Shown here one piece after another: positions 53,896 through 61,036 of a stretch of DNA of 64,000 nucleotides; position 1 is the stretch's first letter; the number at the start of each line of letters is the position of its first letter. The notes under the pieces were generated by a model. It searched no databases. It was not told the DNA's origin and worked only from the letters and a program-made list of their open reading frames with translations. Position numbers and translations under genes: made by a program. Source of the stretch: Candidatus Iainarchaeum sp. (GTDB lineage Archaea; Iainarchaeota; Iainarchaeia; Iainarchaeales; UBA10219); assembly GCA_018304425.1 (NCBI GenBank), contig JAGVWE010000004.1, positions 123,181-187,180 of the forward strand, given 5' to 3'.

Positions 53896-54621
53896 ATGAA
53901 AAAAGTCGCCTACGTTTCGGGGCCACGCGACTTGGGGGAAAAGGCCAGGACCTGGTTGAAGAAAGTCAGGGACCTCCATCCACGGCCCCCCGCATTCCAG
54001 TTCCCTTCCGTGCATGCTGCGCATGCTGCGCATGCTGCGCATGCTGCGCATGCCGCCTTGTTCGTCGTCGACCTGCAGAACTTCTTCCTCGACCCCGCCT
54101 CGCATGCCTTCGTCCCCGCCGCCCCCGCCATCCTGCCAAACGTGCAGTCCCTGCTGGCGGCCTTCCGGGAAGCCGGCCGGCCAGTGGTCTTCACGCGCTA
54201 TGCCGTGGCCGACGGCGAAAGCCCGGGCCTCATGGGGGAATGGTGGAGGGACTCGGTCAGGGAAGGCAGCGAGGCTTCCGCCATCGTTTCGCGCCTGCAG
54301 CCGCTTCCCGGGGAACTCGTCCTCCGCAAGCGCTCCTACAGCGCCTTCCAGGGAACCAATTTAGAGCAGCACCTGAGGGCAGCGGGCGTGGACTCCGTGG
54401 TCATTTCGGGGGTGCTGACGCACCTCTGCTGTGACACCCTGGCCCGCGAGGCCTTCACCCGGGACTTCAAGCCCTATCTGGTCGTGGATGCAACGGCTTC
54501 CTACAACGAGGACCTGCACCTGTCCAGCCTCAAAACCCTTTCCCATGGCTTTGCCGTGGCCCTCACCGCGGACGAGGTCCTGCAAGCGCTTCGGGGCACC
54601 AGGGCCCGGAGGAGACGATGA
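53896..54621 (+). CDS. Isochorismatase-family cysteine hydrolase
   Basis: VVDLQNFF, KRSYSAF, GVLTHLCCDT (D-K-C triad). Confidence 0.9.
   Translation: MKKVAYVSGPRDLGEKARTWLKKVRDLHPRPPAFQFPSVHAAHAAHAAHAAHAALFVVDLQNFFLDPASHAFVPAAPAILPNVQSLLAAFREAGRPVVFTRYAVADGESPGLMGEWWRDSVREGSEASAIVSRLQPLPGELVLRKRSYSAFQGTNLEQHLRAAGVDSVVISGVLTHLCCDTLAREAFTRDFKPYLVVDATASYNEDLHLSSLKTLSHGFAVALTADEVLQALRGTRARRRR
54013..54057 (+). repeat. (CATGCTGCG)x4 + CATGCCGCC in-frame tandem repeat, (HAA)5
   Basis: Read directly. Confidence 0.95.
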
Positions 54622-55559
54622 CCCGTGACGCCATCGTGGGCGGTGCCATCGTCGACGTCCTCGTGGTGGGCGCTGGCCCTGCGGGGCTGTCAGCTTCCAT
54701 CCAGTTGCAGCGCATGGGCTTCAAGCCCCTGGTCCTCGAAAAAAACCGGGTCGGTGGCTTGCTGCGCAACGCGCGTTGGGTGGAGAACTTCCTCGGCTTT
54801 CCGGATGGCCTTGCCGGGAAAAGACTTGCCGCCTTGTTCGAGCGCCAGGCACGAGCGCAGGGCGTGGAGGTCAGAAAGGCGGTGGTGACCGGCGTCACGC
54901 GGGAAAAGAATGGGTTCGTGGTGCGCGCGGGCCGGAAGCGCTTCCGGTCGCGTGCCCTCGTCCTTGCCACGGGCACGGCGCCCAGGCCACTGGGGGTTCC
55001 AGGGGAAAAAGCCCTGGCCGGCAAAAAGCTGTTCTACTCCGTCGAGGAAATGCCGGCCTTGAAGCGCGGCCAAGCCAGGGGTTGGACCCTGGCCGTCATC
55101 GGTTCGGGAGACATTGCCTTCGACTATGCCTTGAACCTCGCCGACCAAGGCATTCGTGTGCGGCTGCTGTTGCGGGGCTCGAAGCCGAAGTGCATTCCAC
55201 GCCTCCGGGCAGCGGTTGGCAAGCATCCACGCATTGCCGTGTACCCGCATGCCGTGGTGCGGGGTCTTTCAAGCCAGGGCCACAAGGCCCTCCTTGAAGT
55301 GGCCGTGAACGGCCGGCGGCAATCAATGTCAGTGGATCGGGTCCTGGCCGCGGTCGGCCGGCAGCCCTGCCTGGATTTCCTGCCCCGGGCCTGGCAAAAG
55401 CGCTTGCGCAGGGAAGGGCGCGCCCTCGAGGGAGTGGGGCTTTGCCTGGCGGGAGACGCGGATGCAAACAATTTTAGGCATGCCGGCATAGCAATGGGTG
55501 AGGGTTTGCGCGCCGCCATGTTCCTGGGAGGGTTTTTGTCGCATGCTTCGAGTGATTGA
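54618..55559 (+). CDS. TrxB-fold FAD/NAD(P) oxidoreductase lacking CxxC
   Basis: GAGPAG, ENFLGF, LATG, GSGDIAFD, AGD; LFYSVEE where CxxC would be. Confidence 0.85.
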   Translation: MTRDAIVGGAIVDVLVVGAGPAGLSASIQLQRMGFKPLVLEKNRVGGLLRNARWVENFLGFPDGLAGKRLAALFERQARAQGVEVRKAVVTGVTREKNGFVVRAGRKRFRSRALVLATGTAPRPLGVPGEKALAGKKLFYSVEEMPALKRGQARGWTLAVIGSGDIAFDYALNLADQGIRVRLLLRGSKPKCIPRLRAAVGKHPRIAVYPHAVVRGLSSQGHKALLEVAVNGRRQSMSVDRVLAAVGRQPCLDFLPRAWQKRLRREGRALEGVGLCLAGDADANNFRHAGIAMGEGLRAAMFLGGFLSHASSD

Positions 55560-56478
55560 GTCCACGGGAAAAGAGGGGCTGGCCACGGTTTTCGTGGCAA
55601 GGACCGGGAACGGCCGGCTCATCGAGTTCGCGGAGTCCTTCCAGCCCGGCCAGTCCATTGACCAGAAGTGGGTGTTGATTCTCTCCGTCATGCATGGCTG
55701 CCCCGTGCGCTGCCTCATGTGCGACGCGGGCCAGGCTTTTCTGGGCAACCTCTCCAAGGAGGACATCCTTGCGCAAGTCGGTTACCTGGTGCGACGGCGG
55801 TTCCCCGATGGCAGGGTGCCGAGCCGGAAATTCAAGGTGCAGTTCACGCGCATGGGCGAGCCCGCGTACAACCCCGCTGTGCTCGAAGCCCTGGAAGAGC
55901 TGCCGCGCCGGTTTGACGCCCCCGGCCTGATTCCATCGGTGTCCACGGTCGCGCCCCTTGACCGGGAAGGGTTTTTCGAGTCCCTCCTGGAAGTCAAGCA
56001 ACGACTGTACCGGCAGGGGCATTTCCAGTTGCAGTTCTCCGTCCACTCCACGGACGAGGCAAAGCGGGACCAGCTCATCCCGGTCAAGAAATGGGGGCTC
56101 CGCGACCTCGCCTCCTATGGGGAACGGTTTTTCGAGGCAGGGGACCGAAAGGTCACGCTCAACTTCGCGCTCATGCAGGGCTATCCCGTGGAACCAAAGC
56201 GGGTCGCGGAATTCTTCGACCCGCGGAAGTTCCTGGTCAAGATAACCCCCTTGAACCCCACCCAGAAAGCCGCGAGCAACCGCCTGCTCCCGGCCTTTGA
56301 CGCCTGCCGTGAAAACCCCGTGCCGGAGCTCGTGCAGGGGTTCAAGGACCTGGGCTTTGACGTCATCCTGAGCATCGGTGACCTCGAAGAAAACCAGGTG
56401 GGCAGCAACTGCGGCCAGTTCGTGAGCGCCCTGGAAGCGACCCGCCTCGCCAAACCCAGGATAGTCCAATCAGAATAA
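55543..56478 (+). CDS. RlmN/Cfr-like radical SAM protein
   Basis: GCPVRCLMC, RMGEP, SVHST..R..LIP, C-terminal NCGQF. Confidence 0.85.
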   Translation: MLRVIESTGKEGLATVFVARTGNGRLIEFAESFQPGQSIDQKWVLILSVMHGCPVRCLMCDAGQAFLGNLSKEDILAQVGYLVRRRFPDGRVPSRKFKVQFTRMGEPAYNPAVLEALEELPRRFDAPGLIPSVSTVAPLDREGFFESLLEVKQRLYRQGHFQLQFSVHSTDEAKRDQLIPVKKWGLRDLASYGERFFEAGDRKVTLNFALMQGYPVEPKRVAEFFDPRKFLVKITPLNPTQKAASNRLLPAFDACRENPVPELVQGFKDLGFDVILSIGDLEENQVGSNCGQFVSALEATRLAKPRIVQSE

Positions 56479-56542: not shown

Positions 56543-57523
56543 ATGGGTATGCATTTCATGGGCGCCATGCTTGCCGGGCAGGTCTCCCGTTCCGCGGACA
56601 CCATCCGCCTGCACCGCCTGGCCCGGGATGGCCACGCGAAAAAAGAGGAATTCCTTGCCTCGGCTTCGAAGGACGCACAAGCCATCCTCAAAGCCCAGGC
56701 CCAGGGTTTCGCCTTCGTCTCCGGCGGCCAGGTCGAATGGCTGGACTTGTTCCGGCCCATCGCGGCCACCTTTGCGGGGTTTGAGCGGAAGGGCTCGGAG
56801 GGCGAGGACGCCATCGGCCCCGTGACGCGCTGGTTCCGGACCAACACCTTTTACCGGAAGCCCCACGTCAACAAGCGGATTTCAGCCGAAGGCGGGGAAC
56901 TCATCCCGTTCCTGCCCAAGCTGCCGGGCAAGGGGCTCGCATGCCTGCCAGCGCCCTACACTTTTTGGCGGCTCGTCGAACACTCTTATTACCAGGAGCC
57001 CGCGGAATTCGCGGCAGACTATGCGGCCGCGCTGGCGGCGTCAGCCCCGCACCTGAAAAAGCACGGCTATGATTGCCTGCTGTTCTTGAACCCCTCGGTG
57101 GGCTATGACCTCTCCCGCAACCAGTTCCAGAAACTCGACTGGGCCGCGGACTTCTTCGCGTCCCTCAAAAAGACCGGCTTCACCCTGGGCGTGCACTTCC
57201 CGCTCGCGGACGGCTCGAAAGCCCTTCCAATCGTCGAAGACTCGTCCGTGGACTTCGTCGGCGTGGACTGCATCCACACCGACTTCGCGAAACTCCACTC
57301 GAAGAAGGACCTCTTCCTCGGCCTCGTGGACGCGGCGCGCATCGGCGTCGAAAGCCCCGCGCACCTCACCCAGCAGGCCCGCGCCTGCCTCCAGGAAGCC
57401 GGCTTTTCCGGAAACTTTTACCTGGGCCCCAACGACCGCCTCTTCGAGGTGCCGTATGAGGCCGGGCTCGACAAGGTAAAGTCCCTGGCCCAGGCCGCGA
57501 AACAACTGGAGGCAGCCAAATGA
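56543..57523 (+). CDS. Split MetE, N-terminal (folate-binding) half
   Basis: GGQVEWLDLF, TRWFRTNTFYRKP, PAPYTF, GLVDA. Confidence 0.8.
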   Translation: MGMHFMGAMLAGQVSRSADTIRLHRLARDGHAKKEEFLASASKDAQAILKAQAQGFAFVSGGQVEWLDLFRPIAATFAGFERKGSEGEDAIGPVTRWFRTNTFYRKPHVNKRISAEGGELIPFLPKLPGKGLACLPAPYTFWRLVEHSYYQEPAEFAADYAAALAASAPHLKKHGYDCLLFLNPSVGYDLSRNQFQKLDWAADFFASLKKTGFTLGVHFPLADGSKALPIVEDSSVDFVGVDCIHTDFAKLHSKKDLFLGLVDAARIGVESPAHLTQQARACLQEAGFSGNFYLGPNDRLFEVPYEAGLDKVKSLAQAAKQLEAAK

Positions 57524-58689
57524 AGAAAGCCTTTGCTTGCCAGGAAGTCGGCAGCATCCAGCGGCCCATCTGGCGCCAGCAGTTGGAAGCCAAGGCCAAC
57601 AAGGAATGGGTCAAGTCCGCCATGGACTGGGGCGAGAAATTCAACGTCGAGGAGCGCGGGGAACTCCGGCAACTGCTTGAAAAGGACGGGAGCAAGCGCT
57701 CGGCCGGGGAAAAGCAGCGCATCGTCGACATCGCATCTATTTATGTCATCCGCATGCTCGAGCATGCGGGCCTCGACAGGGTCTTCAACGGCGAACAGCC
57801 GCGCACCGAAATGTATGACATGCTGGCCAAGCAGATTCCCGGCATTAAAACCGCGGGCTTCGTGAATTCCTTTGACGCCAACTATTTTCGGAAAGGCATC
57901 ATCGACGGCGAAATCTCCGTCAACCAGGAGGGCATCGACTGGTTCGTGGACGAATTCAGGTTCGTGCAGAAGCACACCCAGCACGCGGTGAAACCCTGCT
58001 TCACGGGGCCCTACACCATGGTGGACTGGTCGTACGTCGAATACTACCGGAAACTCAACGAGAAAAAGGGCTTGAAGCCGTTTGCCGCGCTCCGGCAGGC
58101 GCGCGCCGACGCGGTGCTGGGCTTCGCCCGCCACGTCTTGAACCCCATCGTCCGCGCCCTGGTCAAGGCCGGCGCGGAAATCGTGCAAATAGACGAGCCC
58201 GCCGCGACCACGGATGAAAGCGAGTCCGCCTTGTTCACCGAGGCCATGAACGAGTGCTTCAAGGGCGTGCCAAAGGGAACCGGGAAAGCCATCCACATGT
58301 GTTACAGCAATTACCCCGTGCTCTTCCCGGAGCTCGCGGAATGCAAGGCGGACAGTTACCTGATCGAGTTCACCAACCACGCCTCGGTCAGCCACTTCAA
58401 GCCTGACATGGTGAGCCCCGAAGCCTACAAGTTCATCCAGTCGTTCAACGAGTACAAGGTGCCCGTGAACATGGGAGTCGGGGTAATCGACATCCACTCG
58501 GACCTCGTGGAGAGCCCCGAAGTCATCAAGGAAAGGCTGTTGCACGCCGCCAAGCTCGTGGGAGACGCCTCCCGGGTGCAAGCCAACCCGGACTGCGGCC
58601 TGCGCACGCGGCGCTGGGAGATAGCCGTCCAGAAGCTCGTCAACATGGGGAGGGGCGCGCAATTGGCGCGTGAGGCCCTGGGTGAATGA
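57520..58689 (+). CDS. metE: Cobalamin-independent methionine synthase, catalytic half
   Basis: TGPYT, QIDEPA, Zn ligands HMC..E..NPDCGL. Confidence 0.88.
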   Translation: MKKAFACQEVGSIQRPIWRQQLEAKANKEWVKSAMDWGEKFNVEERGELRQLLEKDGSKRSAGEKQRIVDIASIYVIRMLEHAGLDRVFNGEQPRTEMYDMLAKQIPGIKTAGFVNSFDANYFRKGIIDGEISVNQEGIDWFVDEFRFVQKHTQHAVKPCFTGPYTMVDWSYVEYYRKLNEKKGLKPFAALRQARADAVLGFARHVLNPIVRALVKAGAEIVQIDEPAATTDESESALFTEAMNECFKGVPKGTGKAIHMCYSNYPVLFPELAECKADSYLIEFTNHASVSHFKPDMVSPEAYKFIQSFNEYKVPVNMGVGVIDIHSDLVESPEVIKERLLHAAKLVGDASRVQANPDCGLRTRRWEIAVQKLVNMGRGAQLAREALGE

Positions 58690-59577
58690 ATGAAAGTCCC
58701 GCGAATGATGTTTGAGGTCGTGCCCCCCAGCAAATTCTCTTCCGAGGAAGCCATGGAAAAGGTCGTGGCCGACCTCGCCGATGGCCTCTCCACCGTTGAC
58801 TGCATTGATGCCTTGAACGTTCCCGAAGTCGTGGACGAAAACCGCCACGGCTCGCCTTACTACCGCAACCTGGATGTCTGCCGGTTCGCCGAGGGACTCC
58901 GGAAGAAAACCGGCTTGAACGTGATTGCCAACAAGGTGGTCGTGCAATGCCGGGGCAGGCAGGGCTTCCTGGACTGGCTGGATTCCGCCGTGAAAGTCCA
59001 CGGCCTCACGGACTTCGTTTTCGTGGGCGGCAACTACGCGGACAACATCTATCCCGGGCCAAGCGTTGCCGAAGCCACTGAAATGGCCTTGGAGCGATTC
59101 GGCCTCTCCGTTGGCGGCATCCTCATCCCCTCCCGCCTCGACGAAAGCGAGCGCCTGCTCCGGAAAACCCTTTCAGGGACCTCGTTTTTCACCACCCAGA
59201 TCCTGTTTTCCGCGAACCCCTTGAAGTCCGTGCTGTCCTCGTATTACTCGAAGTGCGTGGAAAACTCCGCCAAGCCCGCCGAGGTCTTCCTGAGCTTCAG
59301 CGTGCCCTCGAACGCGCACCACCTGGAGTTCATGAAGTGGCTGGGAGCCGAGCTGACCCCCAAAGTCGAGGAAACCCTCTTGTCGGGCGGTTCCATGGCC
59401 CAGAAGTCCATTGACTTGGCGCGAAGCGTGTGGCTGGACGCGTTCAACTACTTGCAGGATTCCTCGGTGCCCATCCAGTTGGGGTTGAACGTGGAAGCCG
59501 TTTTCCTCCGCAACCTGGACGCAGCCCTTGAAATGGCCCGGCAACTGTCGGCCGCCAGGGCCAGGAACCGGTTTTAA
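58690..59577 (+). CDS. Methylenetetrahydrofolate reductase-like (mycobacterial-type)
   Basis: FEVVPP, GGILIPSR..E..RL..K..G..FFTTQILFS; follows metE. Confidence 0.72.
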   Translation: MKVPRMMFEVVPPSKFSSEEAMEKVVADLADGLSTVDCIDALNVPEVVDENRHGSPYYRNLDVCRFAEGLRKKTGLNVIANKVVVQCRGRQGFLDWLDSAVKVHGLTDFVFVGGNYADNIYPGPSVAEATEMALERFGLSVGGILIPSRLDESERLLRKTLSGTSFFTTQILFSANPLKSVLSSYYSKCVENSAKPAEVFLSFSVPSNAHHLEFMKWLGAELTPKVEETLLSGGSMAQKSIDLARSVWLDAFNYLQDSSVPIQLGLNVEAVFLRNLDAALEMARQLSAARARNRF

Positions 59578-59646
59578 ACCGCGTCCAGGCCGGGTTCAAC
59601 CGCGGCTTTAAACCGTCGGCTTTAAATTAACCATTCCCTCCTAAAT

Positions 59647-59769
59647 CATCAGTTATACGAGTAAACTAGTTCAGTGGGTTTTGCCCACCTTTTTTCCCAA
59701 GGCTTTTTACCTCGGCAAAAAGGCTTTTCTAGTTTCAGTCGTATAGTCTAAAAAAAGGAGTTAGAAACA
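59647..59769 (+). promoter_or_regulatory. Conserved structured 5' leader, copy 1 (55-nt loop expansion)
   Basis: TATA-like TTTAAATTA at 59621; stem TATACGA-GT-AAACTAG / CTAGTTT-CAG-TCGTATA; AAGGAG Shine-Dalgarno. Confidence 0.75.
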
Positions 59770-59922
59770 ATGGGATTCCAAGGCGGATCTTTTGGTGGTC
59801 CAAGGGAAATGTTCCCCGCGACCTGCTCTGACTGCGGACAAGAAACACAGGTTCCATTCAAGCCCACCGAGGGCAGGCCTGTCTACTGCAGGGACTGCTA
59901 CCAGAAGCACAAGAAGTTCTAA
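59770..59922 (+). CDS. CxxC-x17-CxxC zinc-ribbon mini-protein, copy 1 (absent from the ORF track)
   Basis: MGFQGGSFGGPREMFPATCSDCGQETQVPFKPTEGRPVYCRDCYQKHKKF. Confidence 0.92.
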   Translation: MGFQGGSFGGPREMFPATCSDCGQETQVPFKPTEGRPVYCRDCYQKHKKF

Positions 59923-60137
59923 ACCCATCCAGGCTTAGATGGCTAGCGAGGGCCCCCCAAAAAGGGGGCAAGAAACTAGGCAAACACCATTTTTTTCTTT
60001 TTATTTTCAACGGTTCTTGCCGGTAGGCCGCCGGTGTTCCGGGTCGTTTCCCCCCTTGCACCACTGGCTAGGCCCAGGCGGTTTACCCGTTTTAACCCCA
60101 AACCATGGGGTTTAAATTAGCCACGGGCCCATTAATC

Positions 60138-60205
60138 CATCAGTTATACGAGTAAACTAGTTTTCTAGTTTCAGTCGTATAGTCTAAAAAAAGGAGTTAG
60201 AAACA
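60138..60205 (+). promoter_or_regulatory. Conserved structured 5' leader, copy 2
   Basis: TATA-like TTTAAATTA at 60111; same stem closed by a TTTT loop. Confidence 0.75.
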
Positions 60206-60358
60206 ATGGGATTCCAAGGTGGATCTTTTGGTGGCCCTAGGGAAATGCACCCGGCTACTTGTTCTGACTGCGGCAAGGAAACAACGGTTCCCTTCAAGCC
60301 GACAGAGGGCAAGCCAGTCTACTGCAGAGACTGCTACCAAAAGCACAAGAAATACTAA
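60206..60358 (+). CDS. CxxC-x17-CxxC zinc-ribbon mini-protein, copy 2 (absent from the ORF track)
   Basis: MGFQGGSFGGPREMHPATCSDCGKETTVPFKPTEGKPVYCRDCYQKHKKY. Confidence 0.92.
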   Translation: MGFQGGSFGGPREMHPATCSDCGKETTVPFKPTEGKPVYCRDCYQKHKKY

Positions 60359-60475
60359 AACCTCTTTTCTCACCCGCAAGGGCTGAAACTAGGAACAACG
60401 CGTTTTTTTCGATTTCTTCTTTTTCTTTACCCTGTTGTGAGCCGTGAGGCTGAATTAGCCGCCGCTTTCATGCAA

Positions 60476-61036
60476 CTACTTCCACTTCACGTTGCAGCCC
60501 GTGCTCGGCACGTCCGTCCGGAACTTCACCGGCTTGCCTGCGAGCAGGGCCTGCACGGCTTCCTCGAGTTCGTTGGTCTGGGCTTCCTCGTGGGGCTTCC
60601 CGTGCGCGTCGTCGATGCGGCCATGGTAAACAAGCTTGAACTCCGCGTCGAACAAGTAGGGGTCGGGGGTGCAGGCCGCGTCATAGGCGTGCGCGGTGGC
60701 CTGGCGTTCATCCACCACGTAGGGGAACCGCCACCCAAACTTTTTAGCGTACTCCGCCATCTTCGGGAAGCCGTCCTCCGGGTACTTGACCGCATCGTTG
60801 GCGTTGACGCCAATCATGCCCAGGCCCTTGCCCGAATAGTCGTTGAACAACTGCGCCAGCTTCGGGGCCTTCGGCTGGACGTAGGGGCAGTGGTTGCACA
60901 TGAACACGACCAGCAACCCCTTCTTTCCCTTGAAGTCGGCCAAGGAATAGGTCTTTCCGTCGATGCCTTTCAGCTGGAAGTCCGGGGCTTCGCTGCCCTG
61001 CTTCATTTTCAAGTAAGATGACGCCGTCAACACCAT
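60476..61036 (-). CDS. AhpC/TSA (peroxiredoxin-like) thioredoxin-fold protein
   Basis: APDFQL, FMCNHCPY, AACTPD, GCNVKWK. Confidence 0.9.
   Translation of the reverse strand: MVLTASSYLKMKQGSEAPDFQLKGIDGKTYSLADFKGKKGLLVVFMCNHCPYVQPKAPKLAQLFNDYSGKGLGMIGVNANDAVKYPEDGFPKMAEYAKKFGWRFPYVVDERQATAHAYDAACTPDPYLFDAEFKLVYHGRIDDAHGKPHEEAQTNELEEAVQALLAGKPVKFRTDVPSTGCNVKWK

Follow-up and report, generated by a model that had tools for sequence, protein, structure and literature searches.

Identical leaders on twin CxxC-x17-CxxC genes of an Iainarchaeum genome: probable gene conversion, a REP-like loop insertion and a start-site hairpin of the gene family

Introduction

Within a 64,000-nt stretch of contig JAGVWE010000004.1 from Candidatus Iainarchaeum sp. 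(hereafter the window), two neighbouring genes for 50-aa proteins of the CxxC-x17-CxxC type carry leaders that are more alike than their coding sequences, which raises the question of whether selection has held the leaders constant or whether they owe their identity to a recent event. A preliminary description of the locus favoured the former, and proposed a cis-regulatory RNA. We sought to determine how the identity arose, what the extra sequence in the loop of one leader is, and whether the leader hairpin is a property of this locus or of the gene family.

The twin genes and their products

As described before, the two genes differ at five residues and at 15 synonymous codons, which amounts to 23 of 153 nt in a pairwise comparison, and they are the only CxxC-x17-CxxC genes in the genome of the window (G000), which is 92.6% complete. 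Their products score 80.4 and 79.0 bits against TIGR04272 (curated cut-off 36), and 78.9 (copy 1) and 78.3 bits against PF23477 (curated cut-off 27). Each copy is monocistronic: its promoter is followed by a stem-loop at the predicted +1, an open A-rich spacer and the SD, and the unit ends in a putative U-tract terminator, the type of signal on which termination in archaea is reported to depend (PMC8716108). A single-sequence model of the window protein consists of a β-hairpin and a helix (pLDDT 76). Foldseek returned nothing for this model at E ≤ 0.001, the top match of a VIA fold search, to a 98-aa chain of the wheat 40S subunit (Z 3.6, rmsd 3.5, 47 aligned), was uninformative, and an Atlas search with the protein yielded PF23477 clusters only. 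Basic Arg/Gly-rich tails in homologues suggest that CxxC-x17-CxxC proteins may bind nucleic acids. The TIGR04272/PF23477 family of M. mazei, reported to comprise eight members, shares with the window genes the same domain and the occurrence as small genes in several copies; zinc binding was demonstrated for two of its members, A00184 and A01980, and a role in transcription is no more than suggested there (PMC12704099).

Directly upstream of the twin genes, three consecutive genes (56543-59577) encode a Met-synthase N-terminal-like protein, a core cobalamin-independent Met synthase and a protein with a weak MTHFR_2 match, and read as a split MetE plus MTHFR-like operon. They are preceded by a gene for a radical-SAM protein with weak RlmN/Cfr-type matches, all far under cut-off (55498-56478), and by an isochorismatase-family ORF with a perfect HAA tripeptide repeat near residues 41-55 (53896-54618). 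Two extra TTTAAA words, embedded in short palindromes upstream of the copy-1 promoter (59564-59615), could represent alternative promoters or an operator. The best named homologues of a neighbouring thioredoxin-family gene come from Ca. Diapherotrites, and this one gene points to a host that is probably a DPANN archaeon of Iainarchaeota type.

Table 1. Features of the twin genes, their leaders and their 3′ flanks, in window coordinates
Feature	Position	Strand	Basis and remarks
TATA-like box, copy 1, TTTAAATTA	59621..59629	+	Sequence; predicted +1 near 59651
Tract shared with copy 2 except for the insert; putative gene-conversion tract	59647..59783	+	Sequence comparison; ends 14 nt within CDS
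Leader hairpin, copy 1, 5′ arm	59651..59669	+	Fold
REP-like double-hairpin repeat (55 nt) in the apical loop of copy 1	59670..59724	+	Hairpin A 59674-59688, T6 59690-59695, hairpin B 59700-59725
Leader hairpin, copy 1, 3′ arm	59729..59749	+	Fold; 59726-59736 alternatively pairs with SD-spacer 59757-59767
SD core GGAG, copy 1	59757..59760	+	Outside the stem, 3′ of A7 tract
Gene copy 1, 50-aa CxxC-x17-CxxC protein	59770..59922	+	TIGR04272 and PF23477 profile scores
3′UTR segment that complements the L031-type leader arm better than the copy-1 leader now present	59931..59950	+	-24.0 vs -17.2 kcal/mol; putative footprint of a replaced leader
U-tract terminator, copy 1 (putative)	59990..60008	+	Sequence; U-tract termination per PMC8716108
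TATA-like box, copy 2, TTTAAATTA	60111..60119	+	Sequence, conserved in L031; predicted +1 near 60142
Leader hairpin, copy 2	60142..60185	+	Arms 60142-60160 and 60165-60185, UUUU loop; z -6.05
SD and spacer, copy 2	60193..60203	+	May pair with 60162-60172 (11 bp, alternative fold); pairs weakly with codons 2-4 (6 bp)
Gene copy 2, 50-aa CxxC-x17-CxxC protein	60206..60358	+	TIGR04272 and PF23477 profile scores
3′UTR segment pairing with leader loop and 3′ arm 60162-60176	60381..60395	+	15-bp helix; fold, 0/200 shuffles as good
U-tract terminator, copy 2 (putative)	60403..60428	+	Sequence

Leader hairpins in the window

The identical leader tracts are exact (59647-59671 = 60138-60162 and 59725-59769 = 60161-60205, i.e. 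25 + 45 nt) and begin 26 and 27 nt after the starts of the respective TATA boxes, in agreement with the preliminary description; beyond it, the second tract extends past the start codon up to 59783/60219 and so takes in the first 14 nt of the CDS. With +1 positions predicted from TATA spacing, the first paired bases of the stem coincide with +1 (about 59651 and 60142) in both copies. Folding and shuffling likewise support the stem noted earlier, which forms in both copies and is left intact by the copy-1 insertion: the copy-2 hairpin has a free energy of -16.0 kcal/mol (z -6.05, 0 of 200 shuffles as good), and the copy-1 hairpin, insert included, reaches -31.0 kcal/mol (z -4.33, 1 of 200). With its bulges, G-U pairs and tolerance of a loop insertion, the stem resembles an RNA feature, and when the leader is folded by itself the SD is unpaired for the most part (0.94 at 37 °C). 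An Rfam scan gave four weak matches, all far under the gathering cut-off, and a scan of 13 related loci gave one tRNA and nothing else.

An assembly artefact is an unlikely source of the twin leaders. Five of the 20 sequencing runs listed contain 0.96-0.99 of the sampled words, and four of these five may be the source of the assembly; contig pieces from run X6 correspond to 59873-60018 and 59998-60500 with zero differences and do not cover the copy-1 leader, and in three small-share runs examined the stem arms were uncovered. No RNA run containing the sampled words was among the runs listed.

Origin of the leader identity

A DNA search with the leader over the 196 genomes of the order gave matches at E ≤ 0.01 in 10 other genomes, all 18-39 nt long and located mostly over the SD region, so that the leader as such was not found in the 195 other genomes. 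A metagenome scan for relatives, in which 80 of 586 loci were kept, yielded one close relative, L031, a 1.5-kb contig that likewise carries the tandem pair and has its downstream flank in common with the window (79% over 1 kb). Between the window and L031, the copy-2 CDS differs by 5 synonymous changes in 30.7 sites, and the copy-2 leader by 10 substitutions in 67 sites, plus gaps; the leader therefore evolves about as fast as synonymous sites. Since three of the five synonymous changes fall on the window copy-2 branch, this branch is not a slow one. The occurrence of no change in 70 leader nt next to 15 changed synonymous codons between the paralogs has a probability of about 1e-14 at the L031 rate, and of 1e-4 at a quarter of that rate. 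Greater conservation of the leader than of the CDS thus loses its value as a sign of selection at this locus, as the leader was not found in the 195 other genomes of the order and differs in L031 at approximately the synonymous rate. The situation which the preliminary description had itself set against its proposal, namely a leader not conserved in other genomes, as after recent gene conversion, is largely what we find.

L031 also bears on what was exchanged. Its copy 1 has a different (partial) leader and a different N-terminus, and the 3′ flanks are exchanged, with window copy 1 resembling L031 copy 2 (69 of 95 nt) and window copy 2 best fitting L031 copy 1. Moreover, the 3′UTR of window copy 1 pairs better with the L031-type arm than with its own present leader (-24.0 vs -17.2 kcal/mol), which supports replacement of the copy-1 leader. 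To judge from these comparisons, the leaders are probably identical because the copy-1 5′ end was recently overwritten by its copy-2 counterpart, or both were overwritten by one donor. Conversion or segment exchange would be the simplest reading, drawn as it is from one relative on a short contig whose copy-2 leader may be of a paralogous type.

A REP-like repeat in the copy-1 loop

The loop of copy 1 had been described as 59 nt with two extra hairpins. The net insert is 55 nt, with a 2-nt TT ambiguity, ahead of the retained TTTT, which together make up the 59 nt; the hairpins and the spared stem were seen correctly, and the insert is a dispersed repeat. It matches further places in the same genome, where a profile built from 11 copies finds 14 at E ≤ 1e-3, those 11 included. 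Five of the 14 are associated with tRNA genes, a gene class that takes up 1.6% of the genome: two are situated within the introns of tRNA-Leu(CAA) and tRNA-Pro, and three others no more than 200 nt away from a tRNA gene. A strict repeat pattern occurs in 29 of 215 genomes of the class, at 0 to 58 copies per genome, as opposed to none for the reversed pattern, and the copies in relatives are likewise found in or beside tRNA genes. The repeat thus occurs as many dispersed, extragenic, palindromic copies with tandem clusters, in the manner of REP/BIME elements, and we regard it as almost certain that a REP-like repeat occupies the copy-1 loop, in a position that spares the stem. It presumably arrived after the conversion.

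With regard to a MITE, which would have terminal inverted repeats and a target-site duplication, the copy-1 site shows only the 2-nt TT ambiguity. Elsewhere, at L255:1450-1570 and L253:1320-1430 in two relatives, about 20-35 nt from the neighbouring sequence are directly duplicated on the flanks of repeat copies, which may hint at the mode of insertion. We saw no Y1 transposase flanked by the repeat; three Y1 loci, from two of five repeat-rich (incomplete) genomes, gave no repeat match of at least 22 bits. The sole Y1 gene of the window's genome, at a contig end (G000:C1:1-620, L262), is accompanied by two other end hairpins with GC stems, which look IS200/IS605-like. The repeat was not found in viral contigs.

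We also considered an archaeal BHB intron, and rejected it: the insert offers no bulge-helix-bulge, the best arrangement having 1 bp on one flank. An endonuclease gene is present in the genome. Four tRNA introns, those of Gly, Asp, Ser and Gln (G000:C1:296869-297037, C3:170023-170178, C4:152360-152539 and C7:27948-28117), are mosaics of T-tract/A-tract hairpins; these modules resemble the leader insert in style, and similar ones adjoin tRNA ends. The insert places a hairpin followed by T6 inside the copy-1 leader, and this hairpin with its U6 tract may attenuate copy 1.

Start-site hairpins across the gene family

To place the window leaders in the family, we kept 167 of 198 gene records, dropping 31 for a short upstream region, a weak SD, a long protein or duplication; 112 of the 167 have a TATA box and an SD, and 101 a hairpin too. 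In a TATA-anchored test, 79 of 112 family genes had a significant hairpin whose start lay no more than 6 nt from TATA+29, vs 4 of 85 and 14 of 54 controls, and in a fixed upstream window folds with z < -2 were present at 59 of 167 family genes vs 19 of 267 neighbouring genes, in both cases among genes whose kin are not independent. The hairpin test was passed by only 6 of the 20 Halobacteriota leaders scored. In most motif-bearing relatives with a scored box, the hairpin starts 29-31 nt from the TATA box, as at copy 1. Family hairpins more often have the pyrimidine-richer arm on the 3′ side (55 vs 22, as compared with 5 vs 7 and 6 vs 11 in the controls).

A subclass of leaders shares the core AG-UAUAC...GUAUA-A-CU, a motif set post hoc. 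Apart from the window, 20 loci have it, and these belong to Bathyarchaeia, Woesearchaeota and other Nanoarchaeota; none of 267 controls does. Its alignment, composed of motif-selected rows, exhibits A-U to G-C changes in four rows and a C-G to U-A change in one. A covariance model of these leaders (R1), in which one Bathyarchaeia type contributes 11 of the 20 training rows, gave 12 matches, with at most 150 candidates scored per genome; all 12 lie directly upstream of family genes, in five genomes, four of them new to the model. Set A2 omits L135, which is identical to L041, and adds L035. On 99 further loci, R1 gave one strong match (L034) and four weak ones. It did not match the window at E ≤ 5 with filters off, and by eye the window leaders share with its class only the 5-bp core and the basal AG/CU. 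Searched for in 215 genomes, the core pattern gave about as many matches as its reversed control, and none of the eight matches fetched was located before a family gene. GTATA is present in 34 of 118 family leaders vs 5 of 85 controls; a paired RUAUA helix in folded leaders (8 of 95 vs 5.9 shuffled) is not enriched. In viral contigs, the leader pattern gave 40 matches, none with the extended leader, and two frames with the Cys pattern contain stops.

Conservation of the leader over its surroundings, which fails as an argument in the window, does hold for genome G220, where six dispersed paralogs with a Bathyarchaeia-type leader agree at 37-43 of 43-46 leader nt, although their promoters have diverged, at 3 to 27 of the 35 nt that precede +1.

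In the Methanosarcina-type genes examined, whose N-termini resemble those in the M. mazei primers, the leader hairpin is longer and AU-rich, and a second hairpin downstream of it covers the SD. In four such leaders (L326, L329, L331 and L332, from G332 and G362), RUAUAA lies in the 5′ arm and UAUAC/UAUAU in the 3′ arm, so that the 5-bp duplex of R1 appears flipped. Locus L145, labelled Methanosarcinales, has a leader and an N-terminus nearly equal to those of the Nanoarchaeia locus L141, and may be mis-binned or mislabelled. In family genes of the order (L007, L018, L021, L022, L266, L268 and L271), a AATTAGTT-like word follows shortly 3′ of the stop codon.

Overall, a hairpin at the predicted start site, absent from Rfam, is a real trait of the CxxC-x17-CxxC gene family, conserved as a structure. 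The undescribed archaeal element of the preliminary description survives as a non-Rfam family hairpin, but without the anatomy of a thermosensor and without the argument that led from identity to selection.

Possible functions of the stem-loop

Our preferred reading is that the stem-loop may be selected as a structure rather than a sequence, serving as a constitutive 5′-end shield that stabilizes the mRNA, keeps the SD free and permits high expression; as judged from the folds and the family survey, the balance tilts slightly towards this role. To the full account, which combines conversion, repeat insertion and a shielding stem-loop, we give a probability of about one in two as the best explanation of the locus. 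In it, the copy-1 5′ end would have been overwritten recently by its copy-2 counterpart, or both by one donor, after which the REP-like repeat would have entered the copy-1 loop and spared the stem; the stem at +1 would shield the 5′ end constitutively, yielding a stable message, and would keep upstream RNA off the SD, yielding strong expression. Stabilization of mRNA by 5′ stem-loops is known from bacteria. Similar start hairpins are found at 28 of 144 candidate starts across the genome of the window, and 12 of the hairpin-bearing genes, picked by eye and without a hairpin-free comparison, include five that encode S19e, S8e, prefoldin, GrpE and GlmS and two with weak matches to histone and S-layer families. 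This fits a general design for high expression, which favours the shield. A pure shield leaves unexplained the AG-UAUAC/GUAUA-A-CU core in three distant lineages, the pyrimidine-rich 3′ arms and the 3′UTR complement.

In a rival reading, the zinc-finger protein or another factor would bind or melt the 5′ arm, so that the freed loop and 3′ arm would pair with the SD and switch translation off, a minority possibility in our view. With the 5′ arm blocked, an 11-bp helix is predicted to form over the SD in both window copies, and the unpaired fraction of the SD falls from 0.94 to 0.08-0.09. The pyrimidine-richer 3′ arms of the family count in favour of such an anti-SD switch, and an autoregulatory operator would agree with the position of all 12 R1 matches directly upstream of family genes, with the GTATA enrichment, and with the leaders of the six dispersed G220 paralogs, which are kept while up to 27 of 35 promoter sites differ. 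The anti-SD helix is, however, weak (-4.8 vs -16 kcal/mol) and does not form in L031 copy 2, where the unpaired fraction goes from 0.80 to 0.45. Over 101 leaders, the real arms have no advantage over shuffled ones in blocking the SD (0.38 vs 0.40, p = 0.34), with 21 below the 10th percentile and 13 above the 90th. Furthermore, the R1 model misses the window leaders, and RNA binding by the mini-protein is putative.

A broader version, which we consider doubtful, would make the CxxC-x17-CxxC proteins RNA-binding regulators with an uncatalogued multi-state 5′ mRNA element across archaea, in which the +1 hairpin would be the "on" state and its loop and 3′ arm could be captured either by the region of the SD or, for this lineage, by a complement in the 3′UTR that co-evolves with the leader. 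The latter leads to an end-to-end switch, in which the 3′UTR of a ribosome-free mRNA would invade the leader loop, strip the 5′ hairpin and expose the 5′ end, so that decay would be coupled to the state of translation and possibly to warmth. The leader:3′UTR helix of copy 2 has 15 bp, with none of 200 shuffles as good, and in L031 copy 2 another helix, of about 20 bp (-27.6), is built on exactly its changed leader bases, including the one that breaks the stem. Arms also prefer their own 3′UTR type (type B, -21.8 vs -17.2 and -18.9; type A, -27.6 and -24.0 vs -20.6), and the predicted share of the fold in the copy-2 ensemble rises from 0.01 to 0.10, 0.53 and 0.91 at 10, 25, 37 and 50 °C if the CDS is allowed to fold as well. 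When the CDS is kept open, however, the share is 0.03 or less; L031 copy 2 exhibits no temperature dependence (0.96-0.94), and the fold does not form in window copy 1 (0.00) or in the partial L031 copy 1. The pairing was found post hoc, in two related genes, and a family test over 99 pairs gave a mean percentile of 0.48, with 6 of 99 at p < 0.06, two of which are copy 2 and L031 copy 2 themselves. Predictions of long-range folds are unreliable, and CUAG words, which are self-complementary and shared, make such matches look better than they are; we consider the end-to-end switch rather improbable.

A classical RNA thermometer, or a cspA-like cold switch acting on translation initiation, is very improbable, even though a small basic putative nucleic-acid binder is encoded behind a structured leader and the weak 6-bp SD:CDS helix melts on heating. 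The stem remains folded up to 60 °C and includes neither the SD nor the AUG, and the predicted opening of the SD increases only from 0.55 to 0.77 between 4 and 60 °C, via that weak helix; a zipper-type thermometer was rejected, as neither SD nor AUG is held within a melting stem. No Rfam thermometer matched, none of the 120 longer homologues listed is a fusion with a cold-shock domain (CSD), and no CSD gene was seen in the window's genome, 92.6% complete. This genome has two TRAM matches, and archaeal cold-shock TRAM genes are reported to be without a 5′UTR thermometer (PMC5572242). The analogy to thermosensors and cspA leaders drawn earlier thus fails on an SD outside the stem and a predicted SD opening that changes little with temperature, and no link to the cold-shock domain was seen.

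A feature of the DNA itself, either an operator palindrome that spans the start site or a pair of inverted repeats around the CDS that would enable its inversion, is hardly credible: the arms do form an imperfect inverted repeat directly after +1, and a perfect 10-bp inverted repeat surrounds copy 2 (60165-60174 and 60383-60392), but asymmetric bulges, G-U pairs, the tolerated 55-nt central insert and the variable spacing in relatives speak against a DNA operator, and no strand-change joint was present among the few contigs examined, which give thin cover.

Comparison with known systems

Stabilizing stem-loops at the 5′ terminus exist on prokaryotic mRNAs, such as that of E. coli ompA; they are not known from DPANN archaea. 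The window leaders resemble the ompA type in having a stem within a few nt of the (predicted) +1, an open SD, and structure taking precedence over sequence, and differ from it in that part of the CxxC family has a sequence-specific bulged core and in the matching 3′UTR of two genes. With the E. coli cspA leader and the ROSE and fourU elements they share a structured leader on a gene for a small protein and alternative folds on paper, but, unlike these, they lack an Rfam match, an SD-containing stem and a cold-shock domain, and their SD exhibits little predicted response to temperature. REP/BIME, Rickettsia palindromic elements and mitochondrial double-hairpin elements are short dispersed palindromes. 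The insert is similar to REP/BIME-type elements in its tandem mosaics, patchy copy number and insertion into loops of structured RNAs and beside tRNA genes, and differs in being archaeal, in filling tRNA introns and in that a repeat-flanked Y1 transposase was not seen. In the open-licence literature, we found no previous description of the leader, the repeat or the 5′-3′ pairing.

Implications

The identity of the twin leaders reflects mostly ordinary history, that is, conversion and repeat insertion, and is a reminder that twin genes may give a false impression of selection. The loop repeat provides a natural test of the tolerance of the stem to apical insertion, and connects the repeats of tRNA introns with mRNA leaders. 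If the 5′-3′ pairing is real, it would represent a new kind of archaeal mRNA control, an end-to-end switch tying mRNA stability to translation or temperature, and leader and 3′UTR would evolve as matched cassettes which conversion can mismatch, as in copy 1. Beyond this locus, a widespread archaeal mini-protein family bears a start-site hairpin absent from Rfam, for which M. mazei, with its eight reported members (PMC12704099), is a testable host.
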